A DNA stretch of 61,064 nucleotides, filler included, from Basidiobolus ranarum (taxonomy: Eukaryota), in the NCBI GenBank assembly GCA_040143965.1. It is 5 parts of 5 records of this genome, joined end to end, with 100 filler letters (N's around TTAATTAATTAA, not from the genome) between each part and the next. Parts side by side here need not be neighbours in the genome. Positions count along the whole stretch, not along the records: positions 48,947 to 61,064 come from JASJQH010000566.1; 4 more parts are not named here. One strand, written 5' to 3'. Positions within the stretch are counted from its first letter, which is position 1. The number at the start of each line of letters is the position of its first letter. Shown in pieces: positions 12,151 to 61,064 of the stretch. A program made the position numbers and the translations under genes. A model generated the notes under the pieces. It saw only the letters and a list, made by a program, of their open reading frames with translations. It had not been told where the DNA came from and searched no databases.

Positions 12151-12250
12151 NNNNNNNNNNNNNNNNNNNNNNNNNNNNNNNNNNNNNNNNNNNNTTAATT
12201 AATTAANNNNNNNNNNNNNNNNNNNNNNNNNNNNNNNNNNNNNNNNNNNN
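12151..12250. other. Artificial contig spacer
   Basis: N44-TTAATTAATTAA-N44, which puts stops in all six frames. Confidence 0.98.
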
Positions 12251-24386: not shown

Positions 24387-24486
24387 NNNNNNNNNNNNNN
24401 NNNNNNNNNNNNNNNNNNNNNNNNNNNNNNTTAATTAATTAANNNNNNNNNNNNNNNNNNNNNNNNNNNNNNNNNNNNNNNNNNNN
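24387..24486. other. Artificial contig spacer
   Basis: N44-TTAATTAATTAA-N44. Confidence 0.98.
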
Positions 24487-25756
24487 ATGGACGATATTTA
24501 TTTACAGGTGGTATCGCTAGGAAACTCCAGAATCAATGTACTACATTTCTGATTTTTCTTTAGTGGTTACTGATAGGGCAGACACAAGTAGATGATCCCT
24601 ATCAGTGCATACTGAATTTGCTTGTTCCAATTTTAGCTCATGGGCAAAAATCCTTTTTCTGCTATCGTTGAGTAAATGCCTGATTTCTTGCAATACTTGC
24701 AGATGATTGATTTCCTGTTAGGGGCACCATTATTGAAGCCTGTTGGACATTAACAGCTCTAAAAAATGCCTGTTCTGCATTGTTTTCCTCAGAATTATAT
24801 CTTCTGAGTTCTTTATTCAAAAGCCTAGTACCAACATATTCCATTTTTATTAGCTCTGATCTTGATTCTAGAGCAATTAAGAGGTTCCCAAACTTGGCTG
24901 GCAGGCTCCTAAGTAGTGTCATGACTAAGTTATCATCATTTAGAGATGCTCTAATGGATGAGAGCTGATCTGCCATAGTTTTTATCCAGTTTGTATAATT
25001 CAGCATAGCATCATCAGATTTCATCTGAATTGAGAATTTTTTTTGCCTATGATATAGCCTATTAGGCAGACTTGTAGTCTCATATAGTCACTCAAGTGTT
25101 TCCTAAGCATTTTGGATGGTTTTGCTAATTGTATGTGCCTCAATCGATAGTTTCTGAGATGTATACAAAGTGTGGAGAGTGCTTTCCTCTGCTCCTTGTA
25201 AAAGGCAAGGACAGCTTCTGGTGGTCCCTTTGGCTCTATTTCCTCTCAGTAACAAAACCCCAAAGGTTCTTGTCTTCTAGCACCATTTGCATCTTGAACT
25301 TCCAAAGGTGAAAGTCTTCATCATCAAACTTCTTGGTGGAAGCAAAAATATTGGTAATAGTACTGGTAGACATTACATTAGCAGCTAGCTTGGGGCTCAT
25401 AACATGATGACATAGTTTAGCTGATTTGGATGTGTTTCCAACAAGATTTGGATTTGTGAATTAGACACTCAAGTTTTATTGAATTGAAGATGTCCTATTT
25501 ACAGTGTACTATGAAATAGGACTATTGGATGTGCTGAGATTGTAACAAACATGCCTGTTAAGCATGGGTGAAGATTTGTGGAGATGTGGAGAAGTTTTAA
25601 GAAAATAGTGAAAATTGGCAAAAGAGTTCTAATTGATACTTCTATCAATTATAGCAATAAACACACATTTTTGAATGACAGAATTTAGTGATAAATAATC
25701 AAAATATCAATGAACCAAGTACTAAATAATGAGATGCTATTTACCTAATTTCAAAA
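24487..25756 (-). mobile_element. Ty1/copia 5' portion: LTR (25405-25756), PBS, degenerate gag and protease
   Basis: The LTR is homologous to 26651-26999 and is followed by PBS TGTTATGAGCCC. gag reads MSTSTITNIFASTKKFDDEDFHLWKFKMQMVL from 25373, with LLRSLP. The protease motif *YIDSGVS lies near 24540. Internal stops. Confidence 0.85.
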
Positions 25757-26650: not shown

Positions 26651-29600
26651 TGTTGAAATTGGAAAAATACTCTCCTTAATTAGTAGTCAGTTTGTCATAT
26701 TCTGATTATTTAGCACTCATTTCTGACATTAAAAAATGCATGTTTATTGCTCTAATTGATAGAACCATGAATTAGATCACTTTTACCAATTGTCACTATT
26801 TTCTCAAAACTTCTCCAAATCTCCTCAAATCTTCACCTATGCTTAACAGGCATGTTTGCTATGATTTAAGCTTTTCCAGTAGTCCAATTTTGTAGTAAAC
26901 TATGAATAGAACATATTTAATTCAACAAAACTTAAGTGTCTAATTCATAAATTCTAATCTTGTCAAGATCACTTCCAAGTGCCCTAAGTACTTTGATCAG
27001 GTTATGTGCCCTGAGCTAGCTTTTAAAGGAATGTCTGCCAGTACTATTATTCACATTTTTGCATCCACCATGAAGTTTGATGGTGCAGACTTTCACCTTT
27101 GAAAGTCCAAGATGGAAATGGTGCTAGAAGACAAGGGCCTTTAGGGATTTGTTACAGGAGAAGAAATAGGGCCAAAGGGACCATCAGAAGCCATCCTTAC
27201 TTTTACAAGGAGCAGAGGAAGGCACTCTCTATATTTTGTCTACATCTCAGAAACTCTCAATTGAAGCAAATACAATCAGTCAAAACCATTCAAAATGCTT
27301 GGGAAACATTTGAAGGACTACATGAGACTACAAGTCTGGCTAATAGGTTCTATCCTAGGCAAAAATTATTCTCACTTCAGATGAATTCTGATGATTCTAT
27401 GATTGATCATGTAAATTGGATAAAAGCTGTGGAAGATCAGCTCTCATCCATTGTAGCCCTTCTAAATAAAGATGACTTAGTCATGACACTACATGGGAGC
27501 CTGCCAGATGAGTTTGGGAACCTCATAATTGCCCTAGAATCAGGTTCAAAGCCATTAACAATGGAATATGTTGGTGCTAGGCTTTTGAGTGGGGAATTAA
27601 GGAGATCCAACTCTCAGCAAGATAATGCACCACAGGCATTTTTTACTGGAATCCCAACTCAAAATTTGTACAACCAAGAAATCAATAAATTGCATTCTGG
27701 GCATGCAAACTTGGCCAAAACTAATGAAATAAGCTGTCAAACATGTCATAGAAAATTAGGCAACATTGGGGAACAAAGACTGACCCAAAATATCTTAAAT
27801 CAACTTGTTTCAGGCTTAGAAATTGAAAACATCACCCAATTGGATATGTGTGAGGGTTGAATATATGGAAAACATCAAAGAAAGCCCTTATGCAGCTGTG
27901 GAAAGATCAAATCCACTTAGAATCTTACCCTGAATTGTGCTGATCTATGTGGGCCCATGAAAAATGTCTTTCTAGGTGTGAAAAGGTGCTCTATGACCTT
28001 CGTTGATGACAAAACAAGATATACTTAGGTATTCTTTCTCAATTCAAAATCTGAAGCCTTAGCTTTGTTCAAGAACTACAAAGCAATGGTAGGGAAAGAA
28101 TCATCACAAAAAATAAGGGTACTATGGAGTGACAATGGTGGAGAACACTGCTCCAAAGACTTTACTAGTTGTTGTTCTGATCATGGATTTAAACAACTAA
28201 GTACTGAATCTTTTACTCCACCACAAAATGGAGTTACAATATGTGTTCATAGGACCATAGTGGAGATTGCAAGATCAATGTTACATCATCAAAAGTTAAA
28301 TTAGATTACCAATGTTGTGCTGAATCAGTCTCCACTGCAGGCTATACAAAAAACAGATGCCCAGCATGATTGCCACAAAATTTTACTCCATTTGAAGACC
28401 TATATGGATCAAAACCAAGTGTGGATCATCACAGGTTCTTTGGTTGCACAGCATATTCCCTAATTCCAGCTCAAAAACACTCTGAATTGGAACCCAAAGG
28501 CTGAAAAAGCATATTTCTTCATGATTATGATGGAGCTAAGGCCTACATACTGTACTATACAGAAAATCAGAAGTTAATCACATGCAGAGATGTGATTTTT
28601 GATGAAAAAGCAAATTTCTCACCTCAAATCACAACTCATGATTCAGAAAACACACTCAACAGTATGCAGGAAGTGTTGGCCCAAATTCCAGCTGTATCTG
28701 TGCCCTATTCTGCCAGAATTTCAGTCCCAATTTCATCAGTTCATGATTCAGGGCCCAGAAGCTCTTCCAGAAGGAGATATAAGCCTGAAAACAGATGGAA
28801 CACTTCCAATGATGATGCATATGCTTTTGCATCATGGTGTGAGAAGCCACAGACTCTAGATCAAGCTCTGGAGTGTCTGAAATCATAATCATGGGTAAAA
28901 GCAATGTTGGATGAGTTTTCTTCACTTCAGGGCAATAAAACATGGGCTTTAAGTCCTCTACCATCAGGGAGAAAGCCAATAGGTTGCAAATGGGTCTACA
29001 AAAGTCAAAAAATGAGCTCATGGAACCATAGAAAGGTACAAAGTAAAATTAGTTACATAAGGCTATTCCCAGACTCCAGGAGTTGATTTAATGAAGCATT
29101 TACTGCAGTAGCTATGCTTAGCTACATTTGATCAGTCAGGGCACTTTCAGCTGCCCATAATTGTAATTAACATCTAATGGACGTAAAACAGCCTTTCTGA
29201 ATGTAAATCTAGCAGAAGAGGTCTATAAGGAGCAACCAGATGGATTTATTGACCCAAAACATCCTAATAGAGTCTGAAAACTGCAAAATTGCAAGATTGA
29301 CTTAAACAAGCCCTCAGGGCATGGTACAAAAGATTGATACCAAATTGAAATCAGCAAAATTTCAGAAAAGCACAGCAGATCACAATATTTACATCAAAAA
29401 AACTGGAATCAGGATCCTCATCTTGGCACCTTATGTGGATGACATTATCATAGCCACAAATGATCTTGAAGCACTTAATCAGACAAAGGGCAGCTTATCA
29501 AACCAATTTGAGATGATTGATATGGGTGAATTAAGTTATTTTCTTGGTGTCCAAATCAAGTCAGATAAACCCAATCAGAAAATCATGCTGAAGCAGTCTA

Positions 29601-36619: not shown

Positions 36620-36719
36620 NNNNNNNNNNNNNNNNNNNNNNNNNNNNNNNNNNNNNNNNNNNNTTAATTAATTAANNNNNNNNNNNNNNNNNNNNNNNNN
36701 NNNNNNNNNNNNNNNNNNN
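36620..36719. other. Artificial contig spacer
   Basis: N44-TTAATTAATTAA-N44. Confidence 0.98.
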
Positions 36720-43148: not shown

Positions 43149-44405
43149 TCACTGGTCAAGGCACACTACTGCATCCACTTTCAGGATGTGAAGAGCCTTG
43201 GCATGAGCTGTAATGGCTTCACATGTCATGCTTTGAATCTCGTCTTTAGTGAGCTTGCCGCCGACTTTGATGTTGAGACAGATATCTGCGGCGACATCAA
43301 TACCTAGTACTCGTAGTCGGGCGACTATACTCTCACATTCATCATCGTGAGAGCCCTTGGCCTCAGTGCTTTTTCCCAGGTTGAGTACATTGTTCAGACA
43401 CACATTGACATCAGATTTGATGATCCCGAGTACTTTAGCTTTGGCCATGATACCCTCACATCCCAAGCGATCTATATGAGACTTTGACCAGACACCAGAG
43501 CCTTTGACTCCGACACAAACATTGGTATCAAGTTTGATCCCTAATAGACGGAGATGTGCCGCAATATCATCACATTCTTTGTCTGCGACATCATGAGCAT
43601 CTCCTGCTTTCCTTAAGTTCAAGATATTATTCAAGCAAACGTCGACATCGGCCTTAATGATACTAAGTACCTTGGCATGGGCCACAACATCATCACATGA
43701 CATACGCTCGGTTCTTTCTTTGGACCATCCACCAGCTCCTGAGATTCCAATACAGACATTCGCATCCAGTTTGATTCCAAGTAATCGAAGGCGAGCGGCA
43801 ATATCATGGCACTCGTTATACTCTACACCATCGGATCTACCAGGCTTTACTACCTGAAGACCATTTTTCAAGCAAATATCAACATCTGCCTTAAGAATGT
43901 GAAGTGCTTTGGCATGAGCCACAATTTCCTCACAACTCATGCCCCCAAATTGATCTTTAGATGGCCAAGCTGCATCTTTATTCTGGAGACAGACATCTGC
44001 ATTGATTTGAATGCCAAGTACTCGAAGTCGTGCGACAATATCGCGACAGGTGTGAGATTGATCACCCTCATTCTGACCATGTCGATTTTCTGGAAGTATT
44101 GAAATTTTGTTATCACCTAGACAAATCTTGGCATCAACGTTGATACCAAGAGCCTTGACTCGGGCCACAAGTCCATTACACGGCAGGTCAGCTGGATTGA
44201 TTAGGTCAGTATCACCACTGCTCCCATCAGGTCGGTTAGTGCACTGCTCTAGATGTATGTTCGCATTGTAGCGGGTATTAAGATGGGATAATAAATCCTG
44301 GCAGTAGCTGATTCCAACTGGGGGAACGTACCCTCTCTCTACAACAAGACTAGAGCCAAGAAGGGCACTAGATAGAACTAACAAAAGGCTATTGGCGGAG
44401 TACAT
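43149..44405 (-). CDS. Secreted Cys-bounded repeat protein, 418 aa (unknown family, paralog 1)
   Basis: Intronless ORF with a signal peptide, an N-terminal C-x19-C unit and 9 modules of type CxDIVARLRLLGIxxDAxVC / CxDIVAHAKVLxIxKADVxVC. Confidence 0.85.
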   Translation of the reverse strand: MYSANSLLLVLSSALLGSSLVVERGYVPPVGISYCQDLLSHLNTRYNANIHLEQCTNRPDGSSGDTDLINPADLPCNGLVARVKALGINVDAKICLGDNKISILPENRHGQNEGDQSHTCRDIVARLRVLGIQINADVCLQNKDAAWPSKDQFGGMSCEEIVAHAKALHILKADVDICLKNGLQVVKPGRSDGVEYNECHDIAARLRLLGIKLDANVCIGISGAGGWSKERTERMSCDDVVAHAKVLSIIKADVDVCLNNILNLRKAGDAHDVADKECDDIAAHLRLLGIKLDTNVCVGVKGSGVWSKSHIDRLGCEGIMAKAKVLGIIKSDVNVCLNNVLNLGKSTEAKGSHDDECESIVARLRVLGIDVAADICLNIKVGGKLTKDEIQSMTCEAITAHAKALHILKVDAVVCLDQ

Positions 44406-46051
44406 TTTGTATAGATCTATGGTATGGAGAGGAGAGTAGGAGAGGATACGCTTAGTTGTGTATTATTTCTTCATCTGCATGTCAGTTTTATATCTACCTG
44501 AGCATTCTCTGGTTCGACTTTACTCAGAGGTTATATGTGGATATTATCCGATTGGAATGCGGAGGATTACCGAATCTATTCTAGCAGCAGTTAGATCGGA
44601 ATTGCTTATTGATGCATAGCATGAGGGACTTTGAACCATTTAGTCAACAATAGGCAGTAACATTATATTCCTCGCTTTAACTATATTTAGCAAGGAATGG
44701 GAAACATGTTCAAGGACTTTGAAGGGTTTTCCAATTTTGATGTCTAAGTTTAGCGCATTTAACTGAAACCAATTCGATTATGCAAATATAATTTGGATCA
44801 TGATAACAATGGATAACTTCTTATCGTGAACAACTCCAATATGCAACTAAATTCATGCACGCTTAGACTGTCTGTATTCGAATGTTCTCTGTTTAACAAT
44901 TCTAAACGAGCAACTGTTTTACTTTTACATTTACGTCAGTTAACGTAACTTACACAGCAAAGTTAAGAGCAATATCAAACACAGTATTATAGAACCTGTG
45001 ATCTTTTCAACAAATCTAGGAACTATGCGCAAACGTCACAATATATATATACCGCGTGCTGTACATGGATATTATCATTCGCCCTCCCATTTAAAACTAG
45101 GTGGTAACATATCAAAAAATAACATCAGCTCGTGCTTGTGAGATATAATCGCTTGTGTTGGAGTTAACTGAGGATTAACGATTACTTTAATTAATGTAGA
45201 GTAAGGGCCCACAACCACAATCAGATTCCCTGTGATACATGAACAGTATTACACTTAGGGAGTTACATTAAAGTGAGCGTACGTTGTAAAGTCAGGTAGA
45301 ATCTGAATATTGTGCAATTTGCTAGAGACTCGATGATGATAAACATTATGAATATCCCAACTAAATCGTGTTAATTTGGGAGATTAGCTCACAATAGGCG
45401 CTTCGATTTTTATAGCACCGGATATAAGTACATAGTTGCCTGAGATTTACCCTGTTGATCACTCAACTTTTAAGGCAGCACCAGGAAAATAAATATGGTG
45501 GTAGCATTGCATACATTAAATCTCTGAAATGCACGTATCAAAAAACTACAGATAGTAACCACGATAGCAATTGTTGGTTGAACAATGAGATTAAGATCTG
45601 AAAAAAGAATTTTTCAAACTTGGTTAAAATGATTTTAATAACTCAAAATGTTACAATGAAAATTAATTCCTTGTATCAAAGTTATTTATTGATTTTACCA
45701 CCAGAATGAGTGATTATTTCGTGTAGCGGTAGCACCTTGGCACCTTCCGAATAATCAAGGTTGAAAATTCAACAGACAAATTCATTGGGTGCTTGTGATT
45801 AGTAAGAGTTAATTAACGCAGGCTAGTTCACATTCAACAATGCCTTAATTTGATTAGGGGTTAACCAATGTGATCGAAATTTCCGATGTCAGTTGATGTT
45901 TTACTTCAGCAATCCCTACGAGGAAGATAGCAAACCCGCCTTTCAGAAAATATCTATTTAAGACTAACCAGTAACTGCTAAAGTCAGTATTCTCATCTCC
46001 TTAGAGTTCTATCCTCTCTCTCTCACTCTCCATATACCTGTCACTAATAGA
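44406..46051. promoter_or_regulatory. Divergent intergenic/promoter region between the repeat-protein paralogs
   Basis: The genes are head-to-head. Both have a similar CT-rich leader (tatcctctc...ctctccata) just before the ATG. Confidence 0.45.
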
Positions 46052-48013
46052 ATGATTCCCGCCAACAACCTGTTGTTACTTCTATCTAGTGCTCTTCTTG
46101 CCTCCAGTTTTGTTGTAGAGAGAGGATACGTTCCACCTGCTGGAATCAGCTACTGTCAAGATCTGTTGTCTCACCTCAACACTCGCCATGGTCTGAACAT
46201 TGATCCAGGTATGTGCAGTGGCCGACCTGATAAGAGCGATGATGGGCTTGAGCTTCTAAATCCTGCTGATTTGTCATGCGACGAACTTGCAGTTCGAGTC
46301 AGGGCTCTTGGTATCCATATTGATGCCAATGTTTGTCTCGGAAATATTGTTAATGGGTCTCATCGAAATATCAAGAGAGGTGAGGATGATAATGAGTATG
46401 AGCGTCAGTGTAGAGACATCGTTGCCAGACTCAGACTTCTAAAGATCAATACCAACACCGATGGTGTCAAGGTAGATGCCAATGTATGTGTAGGCCTTCG
46501 AGGTACTGGTGAATTGTCCAGAAATGAAATTAATCGAATGGGGTGTGAAACTCTTGTGGCCCGGGCTAAAGTACTCGGTATCCTTGATGTGGATGTCGAT
46601 GTTTGCCTACAGAATGTTAGAGAACCACGCAAACTTCGAAGATCCGGTGATGATGAATACAATGAGTGTAAGGATATTGTCGCCCGCCTTCGTTTGTTGG
46701 GGATCCAAGTGGATGCAAACGTTTGCCTTGGTGTCAAAGGCAGTGATGGATGGTCAAAAGACTATATCGACCGATTGGGGTGCAGTGATATCGTCGCTCA
46801 TGCTAAAGTACTAGGTATTCTCAAGGCTGATGTCAACGTCTGCTTAGGCAACATCTTCAACCTTGGTCACACTAGTGATGAATATAATGAATGCTCTGAG
46901 ATCGCAGCTCGACTTCGTTTGTTAGGCTTGAAAGTGGATGCAAACGTATGCCTTGGTACCAGAGGGAGTAAAGGTTGGTCAAAGGACCATATCGCTAAGT
47001 TGAAGTGCGAAGATATTGTTGCCCATGCTAAGGTACTAGGAATTCTTAAGGCTGATGTCAATATCTGTCTAGGTAACATCTCGAACCTCGGCCACACTCG
47101 TGGCTCCAATAATGAAGAGTATAGCGAATGCTCCGATATCATAGCTCGACTTCGTTTATTGGGCTTGAAGGTGGATGCAAATGTATGCATTGGTATCAGA
47201 GGGAGCAAGGGTTGGTCAAAGGATCACGTCGACAGGTTGAGGTGCGAGGATATTGTTGCCCACGCTAAGGTACTTGGAATTATCAAGGCTGATGTCAATG
47301 TGTGCCTTGGCAATATCCTGAACCTCGGACACTCTCGAAAGTCAAATAGTGATGAATACAATGAATGTCCTGACATCGCTGCCCGACTTCGCATATTAGG
47401 TCTCAAGCTGGATGCTGATGTTTGTATTGGTGTCAAAAGTGCTGGTGGATGGACCAAAGACGACGTACACCGTAAGGGATGTGAAGACATTCAAGCCCAT
47501 GCTAAAGTGCTCAACATCATCAAAGCTGATGTCAATGTTTGTATTAGAGATATTTTAGCGCCTTCTAAATCTCGCAGAGCTGTTGCAGACGCTGAGTACA
47601 ATGAATGCAATGATATTGTAGTCCGACTTCGCTTACTTGGTATCAAACTAAATGCTGATGTCTGTATTGGTGTCAGGAGAGCTGGTGGATGGTCAAAGGA
47701 AGACACCGAGCACAGAAAATGCCATGATATTGTTGCACACGCAAAAGTACTCCGTATTCTCGAAGCTGATGTTGATGTTTGCCTTGCAAATGAGGCAAAT
47801 AATAGAAAATCCGAACACACAGATTACAACGAGTGTGAAGATATTGCGGTTCGACTCCGTTTACTTGGAATCAATATAAATGTGAATGTATGTGTTGGCG
47901 TCAAGAGTCATAGTGGATGGTCAAAAGATGATGTTGAGCAAAAGAGTTGTGACGAAATTGTTGCACATGCTAAAGTTCTTCGTATTCTTGAAGCAAATGT
48001 CAACGTTTGTTGA
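46052..48013 (+). CDS. Secreted Cys-bounded repeat protein, 653 aa (unknown family, paralog 2)
   Basis: Intronless ORF with a signal peptide and the VERGYVPP.GISYCQDLLSHLNTR N-terminus shared with paralog 1. 15 repeat modules. Confidence 0.88.
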   Translation: MIPANNLLLLLSSALLASSFVVERGYVPPAGISYCQDLLSHLNTRHGLNIDPGMCSGRPDKSDDGLELLNPADLSCDELAVRVRALGIHIDANVCLGNIVNGSHRNIKRGEDDNEYERQCRDIVARLRLLKINTNTDGVKVDANVCVGLRGTGELSRNEINRMGCETLVARAKVLGILDVDVDVCLQNVREPRKLRRSGDDEYNECKDIVARLRLLGIQVDANVCLGVKGSDGWSKDYIDRLGCSDIVAHAKVLGILKADVNVCLGNIFNLGHTSDEYNECSEIAARLRLLGLKVDANVCLGTRGSKGWSKDHIAKLKCEDIVAHAKVLGILKADVNICLGNISNLGHTRGSNNEEYSECSDIIARLRLLGLKVDANVCIGIRGSKGWSKDHVDRLRCEDIVAHAKVLGIIKADVNVCLGNILNLGHSRKSNSDEYNECPDIAARLRILGLKLDADVCIGVKSAGGWTKDDVHRKGCEDIQAHAKVLNIIKADVNVCIRDILAPSKSRRAVADAEYNECNDIVVRLRLLGIKLNADVCIGVRRAGGWSKEDTEHRKCHDIVAHAKVLRILEADVDVCLANEANNRKSEHTDYNECEDIAVRLRLLGININVNVCVGVKSHSGWSKDDVEQKSCDEIVAHAKVLRILEANVNVC

Positions 48014-48781
48014 GAATTAGTTCATCATGTTGCGACATTTACTGATGAAGTAGTTATACAGATGATGGAATATTTCAGTAGGAGCCTGTACCCTAATGCA
48101 AACCGCAAATTTACCGTTCAATCTTGATTTCTGATATAGAACATGATTTGGTTGGATTTTTTACTTGTGATATCTGAAATCATGACGAAGTAGAGCGCAA
48201 TGCCATGGAAAATAAACGAAACCAACTTTAAAATGCTCCATAAAGGCCAACTATATTTAATGAGTACGCCAGAAAGTACTGAAATATTATGCATATTATA
48301 TATTGCTATATTACTGGAGCCTGGATTGATTATTCCATGCTATACAAATCTACTAGAGTAGTAATAGCAGTAAGGTTTGGCGGAACTCTCATAAATAAAA
48401 TAAATAGTTGTCAAGAAGATAGCAGTGGTCAAGTAGCAACGCACATATATGCATAAAACCGAGTACATAATCAAACTAAACCTATTTAGTCCGTCATGCC
48501 CCCTCCCTATACGAAGTTGTAGATTTACCGATATGGCCATTATGCAATCTCTGATGAAACCTACCATCAATAGATATTGTTCGTGGAATAAAGTGGGTAT
48601 CGAGATATATCCGAGATTAATTGGCATTATACTTAGACATTTACAAAGGAGTTTATACTTCGAATTGGATGTAAGCATTAATATAAAATAACAAATTGCC
48701 GACAATAAACATCACATCTTTCTCCTCCTTAGAGCTCTATCCTCTCTCTCTCTCTCTCTCCATATACCTGTCACTAATAGA

Positions 48782-48846: not shown

Positions 48847-48946
48847 NNNNNNNNNNNNNNNNNNNNNNNNNNNNNNNNNNNNNNNNNNNNTTAATTAATT
48901 AANNNNNNNNNNNNNNNNNNNNNNNNNNNNNNNNNNNNNNNNNNNN
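48847..48946. other. Artificial contig spacer
   Basis: N44-TTAATTAATTAA-N44. Confidence 0.98.
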
Positions 48947-49138
48947 AAGAAACCAGACTCCATTCAGGGTCGAACCAGTTTGAAGCATCTTCTAAGTACT
49001 AGGCGTAAGAATGAATGATTCTTTGGAATTACGTAGTAGCACCAAAAGAAACAATTCAGAGTTTAGCCCACCAGGGAAGTTATATAAAGATTAGAGAGTA
49101 TATAGTCATTCTTTAGTGATCTACTTGACTATCTTTCA

Positions 49139-49622
49139 ATGAGTGGTATGTAGTAGCTATTTATTGTTGTTGTTATCATGTACTTACACTTTGTAGATAT
49201 ATGTTCCGAGGCTAACAAATGGATAGGAGTAGCCTACCAATTGGGAGGGAATACTAAAAGCGGAGTCGATTGTTCTCACCTTGTACACCAGGTATTCAAA
49301 GGATGTAACAAAAGTTACAACTATACCACCACTGGTGCTTGGCCTCCCAAAGAATTTCGAGTAATTCCCAAATCTGATGTACAGCCTGGTGATGTAGTTA
49401 AATTTGCTGGACACGTAGGAATAATGATAAGCCAAAATGAGTAACACTTAGCTAGAATTTCTTTCACCTTCCTCAGTACTCTAAGGCCTTTCTTAATTCA
49501 GGATGATCAGTGCAGAAAGTGGGAGCCAAAATAATCCTGGTGCAGTCAAGAAATCTTCTGTTGGGCCCAATACCTATTGGGGAAAAACCGCAACTGTCGG
49601 GAACTATTATAGATATCAATGA
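49139..49622 (+). CDS. NlpC/P60 (peptidase C40) family protein, 3 exons, 123 aa
   Basis: Exons 49139-49145, 49197-49440 and 49502-49622 give MSDICSEANKWIGVAYQLGGNTKSGVDCSHLVHQVF...DVQPGDVVKFAGHVGIMISQNEMISAESG...YWGK...YYRYQ*. The G-x-x-Y-x-x-GG, DCS, QPGD and GHVG motifs are present. TATA-like TATATAAA at 49081. Confidence 0.88.
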
Positions 49623-51327
49623 AAAGTATCTATTGGCCCGAGTTGCTTCTCAAGCAATATCGTTTTTCGTCTCTAAAATGTACCAGTTTATATTTGATAA
49701 ATATATCTATCAATTCAAGTAGTGGTTTTGAACTCAGGATTTAGTTGTGTGAATGTGGTATTACAGAAAGTGCAACTATACAAATTGAGGGTGCTTATTC
49801 TGTTGACATTTAATATAGATTTCAAGAAAGACAGCTGCACCGTTAGAGGATCCAACCTTATTTACTTACTTCCTACTGGGATTTACATAATGTGCAGTAA
49901 ATTCACGGATCTTATATATATTGTGAATGTTCTGTATTCTTGATGTGTTAAGTAATATAACTGAATTTCTCTCACCCAATATACTACACATTCTAGGGAA
50001 GATGCCACTCTCCTAAGGTCGATTTCACAACCCTGTAATACCACTACATACTACTATCATCAATTAACTTTGATAGGTGTATTGGATGTATAAAGCGACG
50101 CTACGAGGTACACTCAATTATAGGCGGGTTAGAGCAATGAAATCTTGATTCTTGATATTTTGTATACTCAGTACTAGTCTGCATCATGTTAGCCACCGCC
50201 TATCAGATTCTTCTAAACCGACCGGTTTCTCCCAAGACTTCGTTTCACTTGTCACAGATCACGTGGTTACTTCGCAATGTCCGATCGTGTAACTGCTGTA
50301 GCATGGGAATTTAAGACTCAAGTTTAGCACACTACTCGATCACCAATGCAAAGGTCTATAAGCCATGTTAGATCGTAACTAGCTCTTAACATTTGAAGTA
50401 ATTAAGTGTTTTAGTACTTATCAGACATAAAGCATCCCTCTTCTTTACAATGCATATTCCTCCTAGAATAAGAATAATTATGTCTGTGGGTATAACGAGT
50501 TACTCTTTTGTCTGTGCTTTAGAGACCTCCCATCTCTTTTTGTATTTCACGAACCTAATGGTAAAGGGCCTAGATGGTGGCTGCTGTCTCTAATATTCTG
50601 AGGTTTTGCTGCCTTGAGAAATCGTGGATAATTGAAGTGATGTCTTCAGTGAGTATTACAATCCTTGTCCTCCAGCAATTTGAATTCGTGGATATTAGCG
50701 TATCTTAATCCTTAATCCTCACTTAGATACTCGTATCATTTTGTAAATATGCGTAAACATTTCGTTCAAGGGCGATCTCCCGTTATCAGGTAGGACTACT
50801 TATGTTAATGAACCGTACTATTATCTTACTGGTTTCTATTCACTCGGAGAACAAATACATGACCAAGAGATTGGACCATTGTTCTTTTTTGACCATTAGA
50901 GGGACCCAATAAAGATAGTACTTGCACGATGAATGTGTACTTTTGCAGGAACGGAATTATCATAAGTATCGTGAATACCAAGCATGAATACAATTACTTG
51001 AAACGGTCCAACACCCAGTATCCTTCGTCCCCGTAGCAATTTCTTAATGCACTCCTACCTGTTGATGAACAAACCTCACGTTCTTCTAGTGACAAATAAA
51101 CCACATGTATTGTGCAGTAAAGCAAAATGGTTGATTTAATATGTTGGTGCTGCGGATCTTCCTACACAAATCCATTCAGCCAATTGTAGTGACATGTAAT
51201 GGACACATGGGATAAGTTCCTTAATAAATGTTGACTCCTGCGGCATTCACGTGACCATGGATCGATGCTTCGTACTTATATATCGCTTAATCTAGATTGT
51301 TCAAGTACCTATATTACTCAAACTAAC

Positions 51328-51577
51328 ATGGCCAATCTTACCTCTAACGAAATACTTGAGCTTCTTCTAGCTTTATTTCTCCCACCTCTTGCAGTGTTCT
51401 TAAAGCGTGGTATTAAGGCAGACTTTTGGATCAACCTTGGACTCACTCTTCTCGGATGGATCCCAGGTAAATATCTTGTGCCTACATGCACCTTCTTTCA
51501 AACTAACCATCTTCATATCAGGTGTTGTTCATGCTTGGTATGTCATAATTAAGCATCGCCGTGAACCTCATGTTTAA
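51328..51577 (+). CDS. PMP3: Pmp3/UPF0057 plasma membrane proteolipid, 2 exons
   Basis: LALFLPPLAVFLKRG...FWINLGLTLLGWIPG|VVHAWYVI. Intron at 51467-51521. Confidence 0.9.
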
Positions 51578-52776
51578 ACAGTAGTTGATTGTTCGTTAAC
51601 TTTTCTGGGTAGATGTACCTTCATTTGCTTATATACATACATACCATATACCTCAATGTACTCTCCTAACCCTAATAAATATCTCTTAGACAAATCATCA
51701 TCTAGTGATATTTGCCAATAGCATTTGGAGATAATAGATCAAACTAAAATCTGTGGGGTGGGGCGGGGGCGGGTATCACCTGTTGGCTCAATTGAGTTGG
51801 TTTCTAGTGTATGTACCCCTTTTCCCAACAAAGGGATAATTAAGAACGTAACAATCAGACTAGTTGGGCATCGCGTCCATTCAACGAGTTTACTATCTAT
51901 ACACTGTAATGAATCTATAATATATACAATCTACAATATATACAACGTCATAATGAATTTACCTTCATCCGATAATAAAAAACCACTGATACATAATGAG
52001 ACCACCAACGTACAAAAACTGCATAATAAAAGAAATACCAATGCATTCATAATAAAAGAAATACCAATACATACATAAAACCAATACTCGTATTCCACCG
52101 TTCTATTAAGCTCATCTGTTAGCCAGTCCAAATGTAGCAAGTCAACAAAGAATAACCTTCTGACAATAGAATAGTCGAAATAGAATTTCTGACTTGATGG
52201 ACACGTAAACCCAGCTAGAACTAGGAATAATAATATATGTGATGTGCTTGCTTCATGAAACATCGCTATTTGATTCAGTGTTTGCGGCTATTTGATTTGC
52301 TATTCCACTCGGCTATATGCTCAATGTAGCTTTTCTTCAACCAATCTAATATATAATCAGAGCAATTGATTTCCACGTGTTGTATAAGACCCCAGTTCAT
52401 GTTGTTGCGGATAATCTTGTCGTTTAATCTGTTTTTTCGTACATTACTATTTTTACTGTTTCTGTTCTTAATTAATCATCACAAGTGACTTTTAATCTCT
52501 TCTATTCTTTCAACCATTTCATTCACATATTTTCTGTTATTCCTTCCCATTCCTTTCTTCTTTAAAAGTAACAGTTATCCTCCTGTTACATTCAAGTACT
52601 GTAGTTTCTCTTTATATTGCGATTAGATCCTGGTTTTCTTTCACTCCCTTATTGAAAGCTTTCTACTTACACACCTTGTAACAAGTGCGCATCAGATAGC
52701 ACTACCGTTCTAAAAATTAGAAAAATTCAAAAAAAGAGGAAGCCAACTAATTAATTATACAAACCAGGAGTTACAT

Positions 52777-55700
52777 ATGTATACAAATTTCTCTGACCAA
52801 TCTAACGTTAAAAGCTCTGAAGATGATTTGATGGCGTCAAATGCTCAACTTCCCCTTCGGAATCTTCACGAGGCTACTTGCACAACTCAAGAAGCATTTG
52901 CCACGATCTCACTAGACCCAGTCACTACTACCACAATTGTTACTACCACGACCTCAACTTCATATCCACCGTTGCATTTTCAACCACCTGCATATCGAAA
53001 TCTCGATCCTCAACTCTATCCTCTAGCTCATATTCCTACACCACCTGCACTCAGGAATTTTTACTTTGATTTCAATGGTCATCCAACAATATTTCGTGAA
53101 AGTGATTCTTACGAAGCTTGTATAAAGCAGGTATTTTATTTTATTATTTGCATTAATTCGACACTTGCTGTTTGCTTACTCAATGTACTTAAAGGCTAGC
53201 GGTAACTCTACCATCACAACGGTTGAGGAATCTGAAGTAAATTCTAGTAAGACCGGTCGTAAACGTTCTTTAACAGCCATAGACAACGTCAGAACGGAAG
53301 GTTGCTTGGGTACTCCGATCAGAGAAAACAGCTCCCGCAAAAAACTCAAACCTTCGATTCACATTGAAACACCACCACACACAGTTTCATCCAAGTTTCA
53401 GAAAGAAGTATACACTCCATCTTGTGATTCCACATATGAACCTGAAGAATACGAAATACCTTCCTCTTTAGCTTCTATATTAAATGATCCAAGGCACGAT
53501 ACTATATGGAATGAGCCGACTTCCCCAGCACTACCTTCCCCTTGTTTATCTCCCACAACGCTTTCCGATCGTAATCTTCCCTTCTTACCAGAGGACTCTC
53601 AAGATGAATCGTTTAGCGATACAAAGAAGGAAATCTCTACTGATGTCTCCCTTGTAAATTATGATAGCAATTTCAAGAGTGAATCTATATCATCATCTAG
53701 CTTAACGAACATGCTAAGCTCATTTGACGCACTTCCATATTCTCTTCAATCTTATATGCTTTTTCAAATGCTTCGGAGATGTCCCACTAACACACTTCAA
53801 TATGTCAGCTCAGTCATATTGCCGACACTTAAATGTGATTTTTTTGGGCTTCTTCCTTATTGCCTAAGTCTTAAGATTGCCAGTTTTTTGGATTGTAGAA
53901 GCATGTGCAAAGCTGCACAGGTCAGTAAGAAATGGCGAAAAGTGATCGACTCTGATCCAATCACTTGGAAGAGATTAATTGAACGGGAAGGCTATATAAT
54001 TGACGAAGTAGACGAACACTCTTTAATGAAGTGTGTGGGTAACCAACACACTATTTCGAATTTGCAAGTACCTAAAACTGCACCTAGAGAATCATCACCT
54101 TGTGATTCTGATCAAGGTTACAAATACGCATGTAAAACATCGTCCAGTTACGAACAAGGGTACTTCAATATCAAGAGCGAGTCTCACACTCCTTTGGCCA
54201 ATAGTAATAAGATCATGGAAGAACCGCCATTGGAATATCACGACACTAAATCTGAACTTACAGCTGAAGTTAGAAAGTTATCGAAATATCACGCCCTAGA
54301 AAAAGAAGTGACTCATTTTGAGAAAGAATATCTTTCAGCCTCCGCTGATAGTTTCCATTCTGGAGTAAAGAAAACTTCTACTGAGAATGAAGATCATCAA
54401 GGACCGCCAATGAATTTACCTTCTGTTGCTAACCATGGATATAAGCAAGTTTTTCGCCGGCATTACTTGATTCAACGTAATTGGATGGAAGGAAAATCCA
54501 AATCCATATCATTCCCTGGACATGGCCATTCGGTTGTTACATGCTTACAATTCGACTCGGACAAAATCATTTCGGGCTCTGAAGACCAATGTATTAATGT
54601 TTACGACATAAAAACTGGGCAATTGAGAAAGCGTTTGGAAGGACACGATGGTGGTGTTTGGGCCTTGCAATATGTGGGCAATACCCTAGTATCTGGGTCA
54701 ACTGACCGAACAGTCAGAGTTTGGGATATTGAAAAAGGGATATGTACTCATATTTTCTATGGACACACTAGTACTGTTCGCTGCCTACAAATCATAATGC
54801 CAAGTAATGTCAATCCCAACCCAAATGGACCCCCGGTCATGGAGCCGCCTTTTCCTATAGTAGTAACTGGGTCTCGTGACTCGACTCTTCGGATCTGGCG
54901 TCTTCCTTCACCAGTACACGACCCTCCGTACTTACCTAGTCACCCCAACTCTCCTATGAGTCAAGCTAACCCCAACCCATTTTTGATCAACACGCTTACT
55001 GGGCATACACACTCTGTTAGAGCCATAGCAGGACTTGGAAACCTTGTTGTTAGTGGAAGCTATGACACTACAGTGCGGGTTTGGAACTATATGACTGGAG
55101 AGAATATTTGGCGAATGGTTGGACACACCCAAAAGGTTTATAGTGTTGTTATTGATAAAAAGCGAAAACGCTGTATGAGTGGAAGCATGGACTGCACCGT
55201 ACGTGTTTGGAGTCTTGAGAATGGCAGTTGCCTGCACATTCTAGAAGGTAACTTTTATTTTTTGGCCATACCATATGACAACATTGCTAACTCTTGTTTT
55301 TGTAGGGCATTCATCGCTGGTAGGATTGCTGAACTTGACACCTGAATATCTAGTATCTGCAGCAGCAGATTCCACTCTTCGTATTTGGTCCCCTGATGAC
55401 GGGACATGCTCAAATGTATTATCTGCTCACACTGGAGCAATTACGTGCTTTCAGCACAACTCTGAAAAAGTAATTTCAGGATCTGATGGCACATTAAAGA
55501 TGTGGGATATTCGAACTGGAAAGTTTATTCGAGACCTTCTAACCGGATTGTCAGGCGTGTGGCAAGTCCAATTTGATCATCGTCGCTGCGTGGCTGCTGT
55601 GCAAATAAATTCAGCTACTTGGTTTGAGGTCTTGGACTTTGGAGTGGATGGTATTGAAAACTCCACCCCTATTCATGAAATTGGGGGATCTGTTGATGAA

Positions 55701-55871
55701 CAAATGTCAGTATTTTCCGACTCTGAACTCGATCCGACTTCCATCGAAACTGAGCCGAGCAGTGCGCAGCCCGCCATGCAGTATTCTTATCCACTTCTTC
55801 CATCGCAAACCCATTTTCCGTCCTCTAATCATCATTTAAATATCTCCTCATCGTTGCATTTTAGTCTTTAA
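52777..55871 (+). CDS. CDC4: SCF F-box/WD40 substrate receptor Cdc4, 3 exons
   Basis: D-domain and F-box (DFFGLLPYCLSLKIASFLD...AAQVSKKWR), WD40 repeats (VVTCLQFD, GHDGGVWAL, GHTSTVRCL, GHTHSVRA). Introns at 53131-53194 and ~55248-55305. Confidence 0.92.
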
Positions 55872-56474
55872 CATCATTTTGGACATTAGATTTCGTATGC
55901 TATTATCTTTCTTGTACACTTAATCACAATCCCTTCAGTCTAATATTCTCTTTACTTTGAATTCTGTTGAAATTTGTATTCTTCGTAACTTTTCTTGGCA
56001 CTACGCTGCATATCCATACCTTTACCACTGGAATAGTTCACCCCTTACTATCACCACACAGCAGTTGGCGATCGAACATTTGGAATATTTATCGTTATTT
56101 ATGGTCTAGCCTGTTCGTTCACTGATTAAATGGTGATTCGACTTCATCCCATTTCCTTACCTGAACTCCTTATCTGCTACTAATAAGCGTAATAAACTAG
56201 CTGGTCTGAAAATACAATACACCAATGTGAATGGAGATGTCTTCAGATTCGAACGAAACAACGGAATAAAGTGCACATGTCGAAGAAATATTCTAAAAGT
56301 GTATAGAAATACTGTCTTTATACAATTAACATATACACATAATAAATTAATATAAACGTAATAGAATAGAAAGCGGAAGAGATTCGGATGCGGATTCGTT
56401 ATCACTCGAGTGATACATATAATTCGTGGTGATTGAACAAAAGGGGAGTTATTTGGTCAAAATTGTATAGTAAA

Positions 56475-59400
56475 TTATGGTACACTACGGAATTTGTTGA
56501 TGGTAGTAATGAATTCATTAAACCGTAAAGGCTTGGTAACATATTCATCCATTCCAGCTGTGAGACATTTCTCACGATCCCCGATCATAGCATGAGCAGT
56601 AAGAGCAATGATGGGAATGTGGGTTCCAGTGGTGCGCTCCATCTCTCTAATACGTGCTGTAGCTTCGAAGCCACCCATGATGGGCATTTGAACATCCATT
56701 AAAATTAGATCAAATTTATGGTGTTCTGTAGCTTCCACTGCCAACAATCCATTGGAAACAATGGTGACCTCGTGTCCATGCTTCTCTAATATTCTTGCTG
56801 CAAGTTTTTGGTTCACCAGGTTATCTTCCGCCAAGAGGATACTCATATTTTTACCAGTGTTCTCAGTTGCCATCGCAATGTGGGATTCTAAGGCTGGCAT
56901 CAAAGCGTTGGTTAACTCTGGAAGAGTCACCGGAACGTTGATGTACGAGGTAATCAACATATCAATACAGCTCTTCATCTTGAGTTGCATAGGCATCGAA
57001 ATGGCCAGCAGTACTACGGGAACATATCGCAAGCACGAATGATTCCGAATCTTTTCGACATCTAATAAATCATCTACAATAATCATTTCAAATAAAGGTG
57101 TGTCGGGCCTGGAGGAGTTCGCAATATCCACAACTTCTTGAACCGACGACGCATTAATCGGCTTCAAATGGAGTTCTTCAAGCATATGGAATACACTCTC
57201 ACTTGCTGGGTGATTCTTAGTATTTAAGAATAAAACATGGCGTTTGTTGAACATGGTAATCCGTTGTTCAAGCAAATCAGGGGCCATTACTCCAAGTTTG
57301 AACAAGATGGTGAAGTAAAAGTCACTTCCCTCTCCATAAACACTATTAACCCAAAGATCACCTCCCATAAGTTGCACTAGCTGCTTAGAAATGGAAAGAC
57401 CTAGACCAGTACCACCATACTTTCGTGTGGTTGATCCATCAGCTTGTGAGAAAGTATCGAAGATAAGGTCGTATTTATCGCTTTGGATACCAATTCCAGT
57501 ATCACTGACGCAGAAAGTCAGGATCGCAGTATCACTAGTGACCTCTTTAACGGTAGCCTGTAAAGTCACCTGTCCGTCGGTGGTAAACTTGATGGCATTT
57601 CCTACTAGGTTCGTAATAACTTGGCGTAGGCGGAGAGGGTCACCAACTAATTGGTCAGGAATGTCTTTGTCCAGATCATAAACAAGGTCCAACTTCTTCT
57701 GGTTGGCTTTGACAGCTAACGTCTTGAGGACACTGAACATTGCATTTCTTAATGAGAAAGGAATCTGTTCAATGACAAGTTTTCCGGCCTCAATCTTCGA
57801 AATATCCAGAATATCATCAATGATGGTCAATAGAGAATTGGCCAGCTGGCTCACAATGGTTAGATTTTCCCTCTGTTGACGTGTGAGGTCCGATTCTAGT
57901 GTCAGCACAGTCATTCCAATTATTCCGTTCATTGGAGTACGAATCTCATGCGACATATTGGCTAAAAATTCACTTTTAGCTCGGTTAGCCAGTTCTGCAG
58001 CATCACGAGCTGCCAGGTTCCTTTGAATACTTTCGCGAAGATTGTAGACCATCTGGTTAATTTTTGTCTTCAGGGAGTCCATCTCTCCAGATGCTTCAAC
58101 TGTGATATACCTAGTGAAGTCACCATCAGTAGCAGCAGCAGAAATTTGGGCAAAGGCACGGACTTGGGTAGTCAAATTGGCCGCCATTGTATTCACATTA
58201 CTGGTAATTTCCTGCCAAATTCCCAAGACATCGTTGACTTGAGCCTGAGCGCCAAGATTTCCCTCTGTACCTACTTCTCGAGCAACTCTGGTAACCTCAG
58301 CCGCAAATAAGCTTAGTTGATCGACCATAGTATTGATTGTGCTTTTAAGATCCAACATTTCTCCTTTTACGTTTACCGTAACCTTTTTAGAGAGATCACC
58401 ACAGGCGACAGCCTTACTAACATTTGCAATATCACGAACCTGAGCTGTCAGGTTGGAAGCCATCAGGTTTACGTTGTCAGTAAGATCTTTCCATGTTCCA
58501 TCAACATCCTTGACAACTGCTTGGCCACCTAATCTACCTTCAGTTCCAACCTCGCGTGCAACACGCGTGACTTCAGCAGCGAATGTACGCAATTGATCAA
58601 CCATGGAGTTGACGGTATTTTTGAGTTCTGAGATCTCTCCCTTCACATCAATACTAATCTTCTTGGATAGATCTCCTCGCGCCACAGCAGTGGTGACAGC
58701 AGCGATAGAACGAACTTGACCGGTGAGGTTAGCAGCCATGGTGTTGACATTGTCAGTTAAATTCTTCCAAACACCAGCAACATCTTTTACGATTGCTTGA
58801 CCACCCAATTTACCCTCTGTTCCAACCTCCAATGAAACTCGGGAAACCTCGGTAGCAAACGTCTGAAGTTGATCAACCATTGTATTGATGGTATTTTTAA
58901 GATCAAGCATTTCGCCTTTAACATCAACTGTAACTTTGGTGGAGAGATCTCCTCGTGCGATAGATTTACTTACATTCGCAATATCACGCACTTGATTGGT
59001 TAGATTGGACGCCATGAGATTGACGTTATCTGTCAGATCTTTCCAAGTACCTCCAACGTCTTTGACAACAGCCTGACCTCCTAGTTTACCCTCTGTACCA
59101 ACTTCTCGGGCTACACGAGTAACTTCGGCTGCAAACGTTCGTAGTTGGTCTACCATAGAGTTGACAGTCATTTTGAGTTCGTTAATCTCACCTTTGACAT
59201 CAACCTTGATTTTTTTGGATAAATCACCACAAGCAACTGCCGTTGTTACCTCTGCGATCGAGCGGACTTGCCCCGTGAGATTTGCTGCCATGATATTTAC
59301 ATTATCTGTAAGCTCTTTCCATATACCGGCAACATCCTTTACAATCGCTTGGCCGCCAAGTTTACCTTCAGTACCAACTTCAAGTGAAACTCTGGTAACT

Positions 59401-61064
59401 TCGGTAGCAAATGTTTGTAACTGATCCACCATCGTATTGATGGTGTTCTTCAAATCAAGCATTTCGCCCTTTACATCTACAGTGATCTTTTTAGAAAGAT
59501 CACCCTGTGCAACGGCTTTACTAACATTGGCTATGTCACGAACCTGAGCCGTCAGATTGGAAGCCATCATATTGACATTTTCGGTTAGATCTTTCCAAGT
59601 ACCTCCAACATCTGTGACAACTGCCTGACCTCCTAGTTTACCTTCCGTACCGACCTCTCTGGCGACACGAGTGACTTCCGCGGCAAAAGTACGTAGCTGA
59701 TCCACCATAGTATTGATGGTCAATTTCAAATCTAGTATCTCACCCTTGACGTTGACTGTTACTTTTTTCGAAAGATCTCCCGTTGCAACGGCCTTACTGA
59801 CATTAGCAATATCACGAACTTGGCTTGTCAAATTCCATGCCATCATATTCACATTTTCAGTAAGATCTTTCCAGGTACCACCAACATCGGTAACAACGGC
59901 TTGGCCACCTAGTTTACCTTCAGTGCCTACTTCGCGTGCGACTCTCGTCACCTCTGATGCGAATGTTTGCAGTTGATCTACCATAGTATTGATCGTCACC
60001 TTGAGTTCGTTGATTTCACCCTTCACATCAACAGTGACCTTTTTAGAAAGATCACCATATGCTACGGCTTTACTTACATTAGCAATATCACGTACTTGGG
60101 CGGTAAGATTTGATGCCATAAGGTTCACATTATCTGTAAGATCCTTCCAAGTACCTCCAACGTCCTTGACAACGGCTTGGCCTCCTAGTTTGCCTTGCGT
60201 ACCAACCTCTCGAGCTACACGGGTAACCTCAGAAGCAAATGTTTGTAGTTGGTCAACCATGGTATTAATCGTCACCTTGAGCTCTTTGATTTCGCCCTTC
60301 ACATCAACAGTAATCTTCTTGGATAAATCTCCAACGGAAATGGCTTTGCTCACATTGGCAATATCACGCACTTGGTCTGTGAGATTAGACGCCATAAGAT
60401 TGACGTTATCTGTAAGATCTTTCCATGTACCTCCAACATCTTTGACGACGGCTTGCCCACCGAGTTTACCTTCTGTGCCTACTTCTCGGGCTACACGTGT
60501 GACCTCAGAGGCAAAAGTCTGCAGCTGATCAACCATTGTATTGATCGTCATCTTCAGCTCATTTATCTCTCCTTTCACATCTACAGTGACCTTCTTGGAA
60601 AGATCTCCTTTAGCCACTGCTTTACTGACATTAGCAATATCTCGCACTTGATTTGTCAGATTCGATGCCATCATATTCACGTTTTCAGTTAGATCTTTCC
60701 ACGTTCCGCCAACATCTTTGACTACTGCTTGGCCTCCGAGTTTGCCTTCCGTTCCAACTTCTCTCGCCACTCGCGTTACCTCGGATGCAAACGTTTGCAG
60801 CTGAACAACCATCGTATTGATTGTATTCTTCAAGTCTAGCATTTCACCTTTCACATTGACTGTGACTTTCTTGGAGAGATCACCTTTGGCAACTGCTTTA
60901 CTCACATTGGCAATATCTCGCACTTGGTTCGTGAGATTAGATGCCATCATATTCACATTGTCTGTTAGGTCTTTCCAAGTACCACCAACATCTTTGACGA
61001 CAGCTTGACCACCGAGTTTACCTTCAGTACCTACTTCTCTGGCTACACGGGTAACCTCAGAAGC
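56475..61064 (-). CDS. NIK1: Group III hybrid histidine kinase (Nik1/Os-1 type), poly-HAMP, 5'-truncated
   Basis: At least 11 ~92-aa HAMP units ([32 protein letters not shown]), H-box [17 protein letters not shown]1/F/G2 boxes, a degenerate receiver and a C-terminal receiver (LAEDN, LMDVQMP, KP). The frame is open to the window end. Confidence 0.95.

Follow-up and report, generated by a model that had tools for sequence, protein, structure and literature searches.

A predicted NlpC/P60 peptidase gene of probable bacterial origin in the fungus Basidiobolus ranarum

How does a fungus come to carry a gene for a domain of the NlpC/P60 type, and what might the product of such a gene do there? The question is raised by a locus at 49139-49622 (plus strand) of a 61,064-nucleotide (nt) stretch of DNA from Basidiobolus ranarum (assembly GCA_040143965.1), the whole of which is referred to here as the window. 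The window is not one molecule; it consists of five contigs of ~12.1 kb each, with linkers of the form N44-TTAATTAATTAA-N44 between them, and the locus lies on the fifth. In the following we set out why this is very probably a real gene of bacterial origin. With more modest confidence we favour the wider reading that it is a nuclear gene of B. ranarum, acquired from a bacterium and remodelled to fungal form, which encodes a predicted murein-cutting enzyme of family C40.

The gene has three exons, which splice to a coding sequence (CDS) of 372 nt and a product of 123 amino acids (aa). A scripted splice of these exons gave a translation identical to the NCBI protein K7432_009309 (P0003 in our searches; Basidiobolus ranarum, 123 aa), which is named "hypothetical protein" by NCBI and "NlpC/P60 domain-containing protein" by UniRef; the gene model of a first-pass annotation of the window is therefore also the model of the annotators. 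All of the sequence features named in that annotation, i.e., the domain, its DCS and GHVG motifs, two introns, and a TATA-like box, are present where it had placed them. Exon 2 (49197-49440) encodes the NlpC/P60 core with Cys28 in DCSH and His75 in GHVG, and is followed by intron 2 (49441-49501; 61 nt, GTAACA..CAG, GC 0.38) and by exon 3 (49502-49622), which encodes Ser87, Glu89, and the strands of the C-terminus and ends in the TGA stop. Intron 2 is secure from the sequence alone, because the unspliced frame ends at a TAA (49442-49444) and the excision of exactly 61 nt restores both the frame and the C-terminal third known from bacterial relatives, including the conserved tail ISA[QE], YWG, and YYRY, with no residue missing. 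Both introns had been called canonical, and this description holds for intron 2 (GT..AG) with more certainty than for intron 1 (49146-49196; 51 nt, GTATGT..TAG, GC 0.29). A spliceosomal intron is probable at the latter position and is required for the MSD N-terminus of the database protein, however, it is less sure because exon 1 (49139-49145; ATG AGT G), with only 7 nt, is the most doubtful element of the model, and because an in-frame ATG at 49178 provides an alternative start that needs no intron 1. The TATA-like motif (TATATAAA, 49081-49088, plus strand) does lie 51 nt upstream of the ATG at 49139, but it is weak promoter evidence, as motifs of this class are common across the window (73 matches to TATAWAWR on both strands vs. 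39.7 expected). The model protein was also said to have no signal peptide, and by eye its N-terminus (MSD..) indeed shows no hydrophobic leader, with the contig edge lying 192 bp from the ATG.

As the window is composed of five joined contigs, arguments from a shared contig are valid only inside each piece. The fifth, true contig (48947-61064) has 12,118 bp, in agreement with the length on record for the contig of K7432_009309. It is gap-free, with no N, and carries the NlpC/P60 gene together with genes for Pmp3, a CDC4-like protein, and a histidine kinase. The NlpC/P60 gene is thus physically linked to ordinary fungal genes, and the linkage argument of the first-pass annotation, which had placed it on one contig with PMP3 and CDC4 and concluded that it was not contamination, stands. 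It is also ameliorated in composition: its CDS has a GC content of 0.417 and a third-position GC content (GC3) of 0.339, compared with 0.412-0.437 and 0.354-0.394 for the CDS of its neighbours. Its introns of 51 and 61 nt are similarly matched by introns of 55 and 58 nt in the neighbours, and intron 2 has its first five bases (GTAAC) in common with the intron of the CDC4-like gene.

The product is a stand-alone NlpC/P60 (C40) domain with a papain-like alpha+beta fold, in agreement with the initial reading. The whole protein matches Pfam PF00877 with 51.9 bits (cut-off 23; E 8e-14; profile positions 1-87 of 105), and exon 2 alone reaches 43 bits (E 4.7e-11). The best match in a sequence search of the PDB was E. 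coli Spr/MepS (2k1g, E 5.5e-9), followed by a diffocin hub hydrolase and B. subtilis LytE. An AlphaFold2 model built from a 76-row alignment has a pLDDT of 93.7 and a pTM of 0.88, with no segment below pLDDT 50, and in a Foldseek search of this model MepS again came first (7v6u/8xup; TM 0.78, 30% identity, probability 1.00) among 63 PDB matches at E <= 0.001, which continued with other peptidoglycan endopeptidases; LytE (8i2d) had a TM of 0.79. The ESM Atlas model has a TM of 0.83-0.86 to bacterial NlpC/P60 clusters. Cys28 (in GVDCSH) and His75 (in GHVG) align with the catalytic pair of Spr, Cys28 at the start of helix 28-38 of the model, whereas Ser87, in MISA, aligns with the third His of E. 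coli Spr/MepS, the canonical third-residue His being absent. The fungal protein is therefore like MepS/Spr and LytE (MEROPS C40, PF00877) in fold, domain size, and Cys and His motifs, but differs from MepS in having Ser87 in place of the third His. It also differs in its setting, as MepS and LytE are exported (as a lipoprotein or LysM-anchored) while the fungal protein has no leader or anchor and is the product of an intron-bearing gene.

Where are the relatives of this protein to be found? A full HMMER scan covered 1.84 billion representative proteins and returned 2144 at E <= 0.001, 40 at <= 1e-10, and 3 at <= 1e-30, the query itself included; no close relative of the fungal protein was present in this collection. 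A search with a 20-row subfamily profile returned 348 proteins at E <= 1e-5. No eukaryote-named relative occurred in the best 150 of the 2144 HMMER matches or in the best 120 of the 348 profile matches. It should be noted that this lack of eukaryotes is only weakly informative among the profile matches, because nearly all of these are unnamed proteins from metagenomes or metagenome-assembled genomes (MAGs); just 2 of the 120 carry an organism name, namely the query and a Chthoniobacteraceae MAG. In a collection of prokaryote species genomes, 99 of 124 pattern matches encode relatives, the best of them 38-46% identical to the fungal protein and belonging to Ruminiclostridium sufflavum, an Armatimonadota MAG, a Geobacteraceae MAG, Cystobacter fuscus, Acidobacteriota, cyanobacteria, and Lachnospiraceae. 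The named relatives are all bacterial and none exceeds 46% identity. The top phmmer match (P0004, E 2e-39) was rejected as special kin, its score being the sum over 8-9 tandem NlpC/P60-like repeats. P0004 is a secreted-looking metagenome protein of 1183 aa, in which most repeats are without the catalytic Cys and one late repeat keeps D-C-S; it looks like a degenerate array of wall-binding modules with one active unit.

For the phylogeny, 335 domain matches of at least 95 profile positions were reduced to 263 with the motif [DN]C[STAG] and then to 261 rows, with one domain per protein; owing to this filter, Cys28 is present in every row by construction. An 84-row set was made up from the 60 sequences that scored highest in phmmer, the 22 best named loci, and 8 canonical sequences that have the third His, and the careful IQ-TREE run on it used LG+C20+F+G4. 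In the 84-row tree the fungal protein falls in a 52-row clade with an ultrafast bootstrap (UFboot) of 97 and an SH-like approximate likelihood ratio test (SH-aLRT) value of 87, and this clade sits within larger clades of 62 rows (97/87), 66 rows (99/94), and 79 rows (99/90). All 22 named rows of the tree are from Bacteria, and the 12 of these inside the 52-row clade come from seven phyla. No close eukaryotic relative is among the named rows of this tree, most rows of which are unnamed. With bacterial nearest relatives, a supported clade, and only bacteria among the named rows, the acquisition from bacteria proposed at the outset is the best reading. The gene belongs to a bacterial subfamily, and a transfer from bacterium to fungus with subsequent intron gain is well supported. 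As to the donor lineage, no sister group was marked in FastTree (261 rows) or in the quick and careful IQ-TREE runs (84 rows). FastTree did join the fungal protein to P0114 (Chondromyces), but this pairing of two long branches was set aside as a likely artefact.

The subfamily defined by this clade has recognisable marks: G[IV]DCSH[LF]V, often [WF]PP, GH[MV]GI, a strand [FL]I[GS]AQ, and a YWG..GYYR[YW] tail, with DCSH standing where canonical NlpC/P60 members have DCSG. His75 of the fungal protein occupies a column that is invariant in both subfamily alignments and in 51/51 clade rows, and the protein also conforms to the subfamily at its remaining nearly invariant positions. The column of the third His is different. 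Among the 51 clade relatives of the fungal protein it holds Gly in 24, Ser in 21, Ala in 3, Asn in 2, Asp in 1, and His in none, whereas all five canonical outgroup rows have His. Ser87 is therefore normal for its kin; the first-pass annotation had correctly noted a Ser in place of the usual His, but this is not a peculiarity of the fungal copy. Two residues past this column the relatives have Gln (35), Thr (7), Arg (3), Gly (3), Ser (2), or Asn (1), and the outgroup rows have Ser. In the fungal protein this second position would be Glu89, a putative correspondence that rests on the chosen alignment: MAFFT --auto placed the subfamily Gln on Gln93, while L-INS-i on the clade pairs MISAE with [FL]I[GS]AQ, and the latter was adopted because it leaves the hydrophobic strand residues in register.

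In bacteria, the subfamily comprises C-terminal toxin modules of Rhs/YD-repeat proteins as well as small secreted or leaderless proteins. In the Geobacteraceae MAG (L004), the domain makes up the C-terminal ~120 aa of a YD-repeat protein of 1439 aa and follows directly on the DPxGL end of the core. The Rhs_assc_core (TIGR03696) lies just ahead of the NlpC/P60 domain in P0013 and P0188, P0072 (1632 aa) is named "RHS repeat-associated," and an Rhs core or YD-repeat sequence was recognised upstream of the domain in P0023, P0036, P0052, P0029, and P0041 by regular-expression search and by eye. The small members include a Ruminiclostridium protein of 161 aa with a leader (by eye) and, without a leader, a Cystobacter protein of 136 aa and P0195 and P0183 of 127 aa each. 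A Tox-NLPC/P60 toxin domain has been listed with RHS repeats and predicted to degrade the walls of target cells (Zhang et al., 2012; PMC3482391). The fungal protein shares the 52-row clade with L004/P0022, P0013, P0023, P0052, P0036, and P0188 and spans the same module that follows the DPxGL motif of the Rhs core, but it stands alone, without Rhs repeats, a secretion-system marker, or an adjacent immunity gene. Moreover, its kinship to these toxins is that of a sister to the sampled clade and not of a sequence nested in it. As a separate observation, a 185-aa open reading frame (ORF) with an N-terminal hydrophobic stretch (L004 4296-4853, plus strand) overlaps the stop of the Rhs-borne toxin of L004 and could encode an immunity protein against toxins of this subfamily.

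What might the fungal enzyme do? If the gene is expressed, the balance of the evidence leans slightly toward an active murein peptidase. In such an enzyme Cys28 would be the nucleophile and His75 the general base, and Glu89, at the place of the subfamily Gln, may orient His75. It would hydrolyse a peptide or isopeptide bond in the stem peptides of peptidoglycan, as MepS and LytE do. The enzyme would be harmless to the fungus and an immunity protein would not be needed, because the fungus is without murein. As the model has no leader, contact with the substrate would come only through non-classical release or the lysis of hyphae, unless the enzyme acts on intracellular (imported) muropeptides. 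Insofar as this can be judged from sequence, the open frame, the full amelioration, and the gain of introns speak for selection having retained the gene.

Several observations weigh against this reading. Within the 52-row clade the fungal protein is sister to the other 51 rows, which form a group with support of 98/77, so that of the nesting within bacteria proposed as a check on transfer, the position of the clade within bacterial clades was recovered but neither a place among its members nor a donor. The fungal terminal branch is long (0.89 changes per column) and the IQ-TREE bootstrap is not fully settled (correlation 0.957); a long sister branch would be expected equally from faster or relaxed evolution and from an unsampled donor. 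Some of the unnamed metagenome relatives could be eukaryotic. The gene may also be confined to one species or strain: a word-indexed search for orthologues of 44-140 aa with exon 2 as query found only the query protein itself, none of 98 candidates for a longer form of 217-2000 aa reached E <= 0.001, only 4 of 46 pattern matches in JGI metagenomes were relatives (31-36% identical), and tblastn against the window gave no further copy. The model is insecure at its 5' end, given how close the ATG at 49139 lies to the 5' end of the contig, and a further upstream exon, e.g., one encoding a leader, may lie beyond that edge. Finally, Glu89 stands where most clade rows have Gln and is followed by a 4-residue insertion, and the absence of a signal peptide from the model leaves access to bacterial walls unexplained.

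Some of these points would equally suit a gene without a function. It is possible, if unlikely, that the locus is a decaying or silent relic, transferred and ameliorated but of no use, in which the predicted introns are in part the product of a gene finder that bridged defects. A single known copy in one species, the long terminal branch, the replacement of the subfamily Gln with an insertion after the active-site strand, the missing leader, and an exon 1 of 7 nt with an intron-free alternative start are all compatible with a relic. However, 123 sense codons would stay open by chance with P ~7e-4 at this base composition, Cys28, His75, and other nearly invariant subfamily positions are retained, and the AlphaFold2 model is confident throughout. 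In addition, intron 2 is of the GT..AG type and of host-like size and its removal restores homology without loss of a residue, which would be rare for an arbitrary defect.

A further doubtful alternative is that the enzyme is active but not antibacterial, i.e., a cytosolic peptidase that trims imported peptidoglycan fragments or gamma-glutamyl/D-amino-acid peptides in nutrition or signalling, or one with a non-murein substrate. There are cytoplasmic NlpC/P60 members, B. subtilis YkfC among them, whose substrates are free muropeptides, and acyltransferases also belong to the superfamily. The leaderless model would suit a cytosolic role, as would the altered third-residue region and the absence of SH3b, LysM, or any other wall-binding module, unlike many lytic NlpC/P60 proteins in the Atlas clusters. 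Nevertheless, among bacteria the closest relatives are not recycling enzymes but exported toxins or secreted proteins, and no uptake system or partner gene adjoins the NlpC/P60 gene on its contig.

The domestication and the antibacterial or endosymbiont-control use proposed in the first-pass annotation are conjectural. An elaboration of the favoured reading, which we regard as speculative and rather improbable in its entirety, is that an Rhs-type NlpC/P60 toxin module was captured and is retained as an antibacterial enzyme with neither leader nor immunity protein. It would thin out gut bacteria once hyphae are damaged or once it has left the cell by a non-classical route, and it would be a fungal counterpart of tick Dae2 with a variant site of Cys-His plus Glu and no third His. 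No immunity gene lies immediately downstream of the NlpC/P60 gene, where 1.7 kb without a recognised ORF are followed by Pmp3. The dae genes of ticks and other eukaryotes reportedly derive from bacterial type VI Tae toxins, as described by Chou et al. in 2015, and the Dae proteins are said to carry signal peptides and to have been shown active. The concept is alike, in that a papain-like, wall-degrading interbacterial toxin of the NlpC/P60 superfamily would have been taken over by a eukaryote, but the fungal protein differs in having no signal peptide. Descent from the Tae families is not indicated, because no Tae/Tse1 structure was among the PDB matches listed in the sequence and Foldseek searches.

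Two further alternatives fare worse. It is highly improbable that the gene descended vertically from an old eukaryotic or fungal ancestor, or that a phage and not a bacterium was its source. The protein does branch at the base of the subfamily clade and not inside it, and an ESM feature search ranked clusters of small phage C40 peptidases first (0.95 and 0.94). However, the best 150 HMMER and best 120 profile matches described above include no eukaryote-named relative, and DCSH, the lack of a third His, and the YWG..YYRY tail are common to chromosomal bacterial genes of seven phyla. A phage origin was rejected since the best match in phage records (38% identity over 75% of the query, E 9e-8; 80% coverage was reached in just 3 of 49 records) is weaker than the chromosomal relatives, and a plasmid origin was rejected in the same way (best match 36% identity, E 2e-9). 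Bacterial contamination or an assembly chimera is very unlikely and close to refuted, for while the family is bacterial, the gene lies near a contig end, and the assembly is fragmented into contigs of ~12 kb, there is no N between the gene and its fungal neighbours within 48947-61064, the frame requires a 61-nt GT..AG intron that is not expected in a bacterial gene, GC3 equals that of the neighbours, and no bacterial sequence is more than 46% identical.

The transfer of NlpC/P60 genes to eukaryotes has precedents. NlpC_A and NlpC_B of Trichomonas vaginalis are laterally acquired peptidoglycan hydrolases, whose activity and induction by bacteria have been demonstrated (Pinheiro et al., 2018; PMC6299479). 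These are likewise bacterial NlpC/P60 genes in a eukaryote that lives among bacteria, and their products have the superfamily fold in common with the fungal protein (6bim and 6biq rank 34 and 36 in the Foldseek search), but identity in the structural alignment is only 18-20% and the Trichomonas proteins carry SH3b; the fungal gene represents a different subfamily and an independent event. Candidates for lateral transfer have also been named in fungi (Aspergillus, Metarhizium), mites (Dermatophagoides LytFM), and Acanthamoeba (PMC6299479). The fungal and mite cases are events of the same kind, with a gene for a bacterial C40 peptidase in a fungal or animal genome, however, the published fungal candidates are in Ascomycota and the Basidiobolus gene is in Zoopagomycota. 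The Aspergillus, Metarhizium, and LytFM candidates are absent from the best 150 of 2144 and best 120 of 348 relatives, and the Basidiobolus gene is therefore taken as a separate acquisition of a different subfamily. An NlpC/P60-like endopeptidase domain has been described in Neocallimastix (bioRxiv 10.64898/2026.06.07.730663). In three other Basidiobolus genomes, bacterial genes make up 2-5% of gene models and have a host-like composition and fewer introns (PMC7466969). No publication in the library searched names both Basidiobolus and NlpC, and "NlpC" is absent from the main texts of PMC7466969 and PMC11291939, whose supplementary gene lists may include the family.

If the protein is made and active, it would be a first case in an early-diverging fungus of a murein-cleaving toxin module taken from bacteria, and it would provide a molecular handle on how Basidiobolus, a fungus of the amphibian and reptile gut, deals with gut bacteria, a subject to which two papers have been devoted (PMC10964425, PMC12400927). 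The only new points are that the subfamily is linked to Rhs toxins and that it lacks the third His; the gene is otherwise an ordinary addition to two published lists, that of bacterial genes in Basidiobolus and that of NlpC/P60 transfers to eukaryotes. A coherent, uncharacterised NlpC/P60 subfamily without the third His, found in Rhs toxins of several phyla, has a chemistry that is worth study in its own right.

The neighbours of the NlpC/P60 gene on the fifth contig are, in order, a Pmp3 proteolipid gene (51328-51577, plus strand; PF01679, E 3.8e-18) with a single 55-nt intron (51467-51521, GTAAAT..CAG), a CDC4-like gene with F-box and WD40 domains (53126-55871, plus strand, the start not being fixed; F-box-like E 1.5e-9, WD40 E 1e-37) with a 58-nt intron (55248-55305, GTAACT..TAG), and a hybrid histidine kinase gene (56475-61064, minus strand). 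The last encodes 10 HAMP stretches, HisKA, HATPase_c, and a receiver domain, and its 5' part, which encodes the N-terminus, is lost at the contig end; we take this HAMP hybrid kinase to be of the fungal group III/Nik1 type. Its HAMP units are near-identical repeats.

The linkers that separate the five contigs (N44, TTAATTAATTAA, N44) occupy 12151-12250, 24387-24486, 36620-36719, and 48847-48946. The first and second contigs encode an MFS transporter and a sugar transporter with long exons (2692-3765, plus strand, and 14835-16016, minus strand, respectively). The third contig has two ORFs that match the gag polypeptide of copia-type long terminal repeat (LTR) retrotransposons (PF14223) in opposite orientation, at 24665-25087 (minus strand; E 3e-17) and 27081-27857 (plus strand; E 3e-25). 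Two large ORFs at 43152-44462 (minus strand) and 45968-48010 (plus strand) have no Pfam match at E <= 1e-5. A (CT)n microsatellite at 48745-48770 lies near the 3' end of the fourth contig, before the linker, and is probably the reason why that contig ends there.

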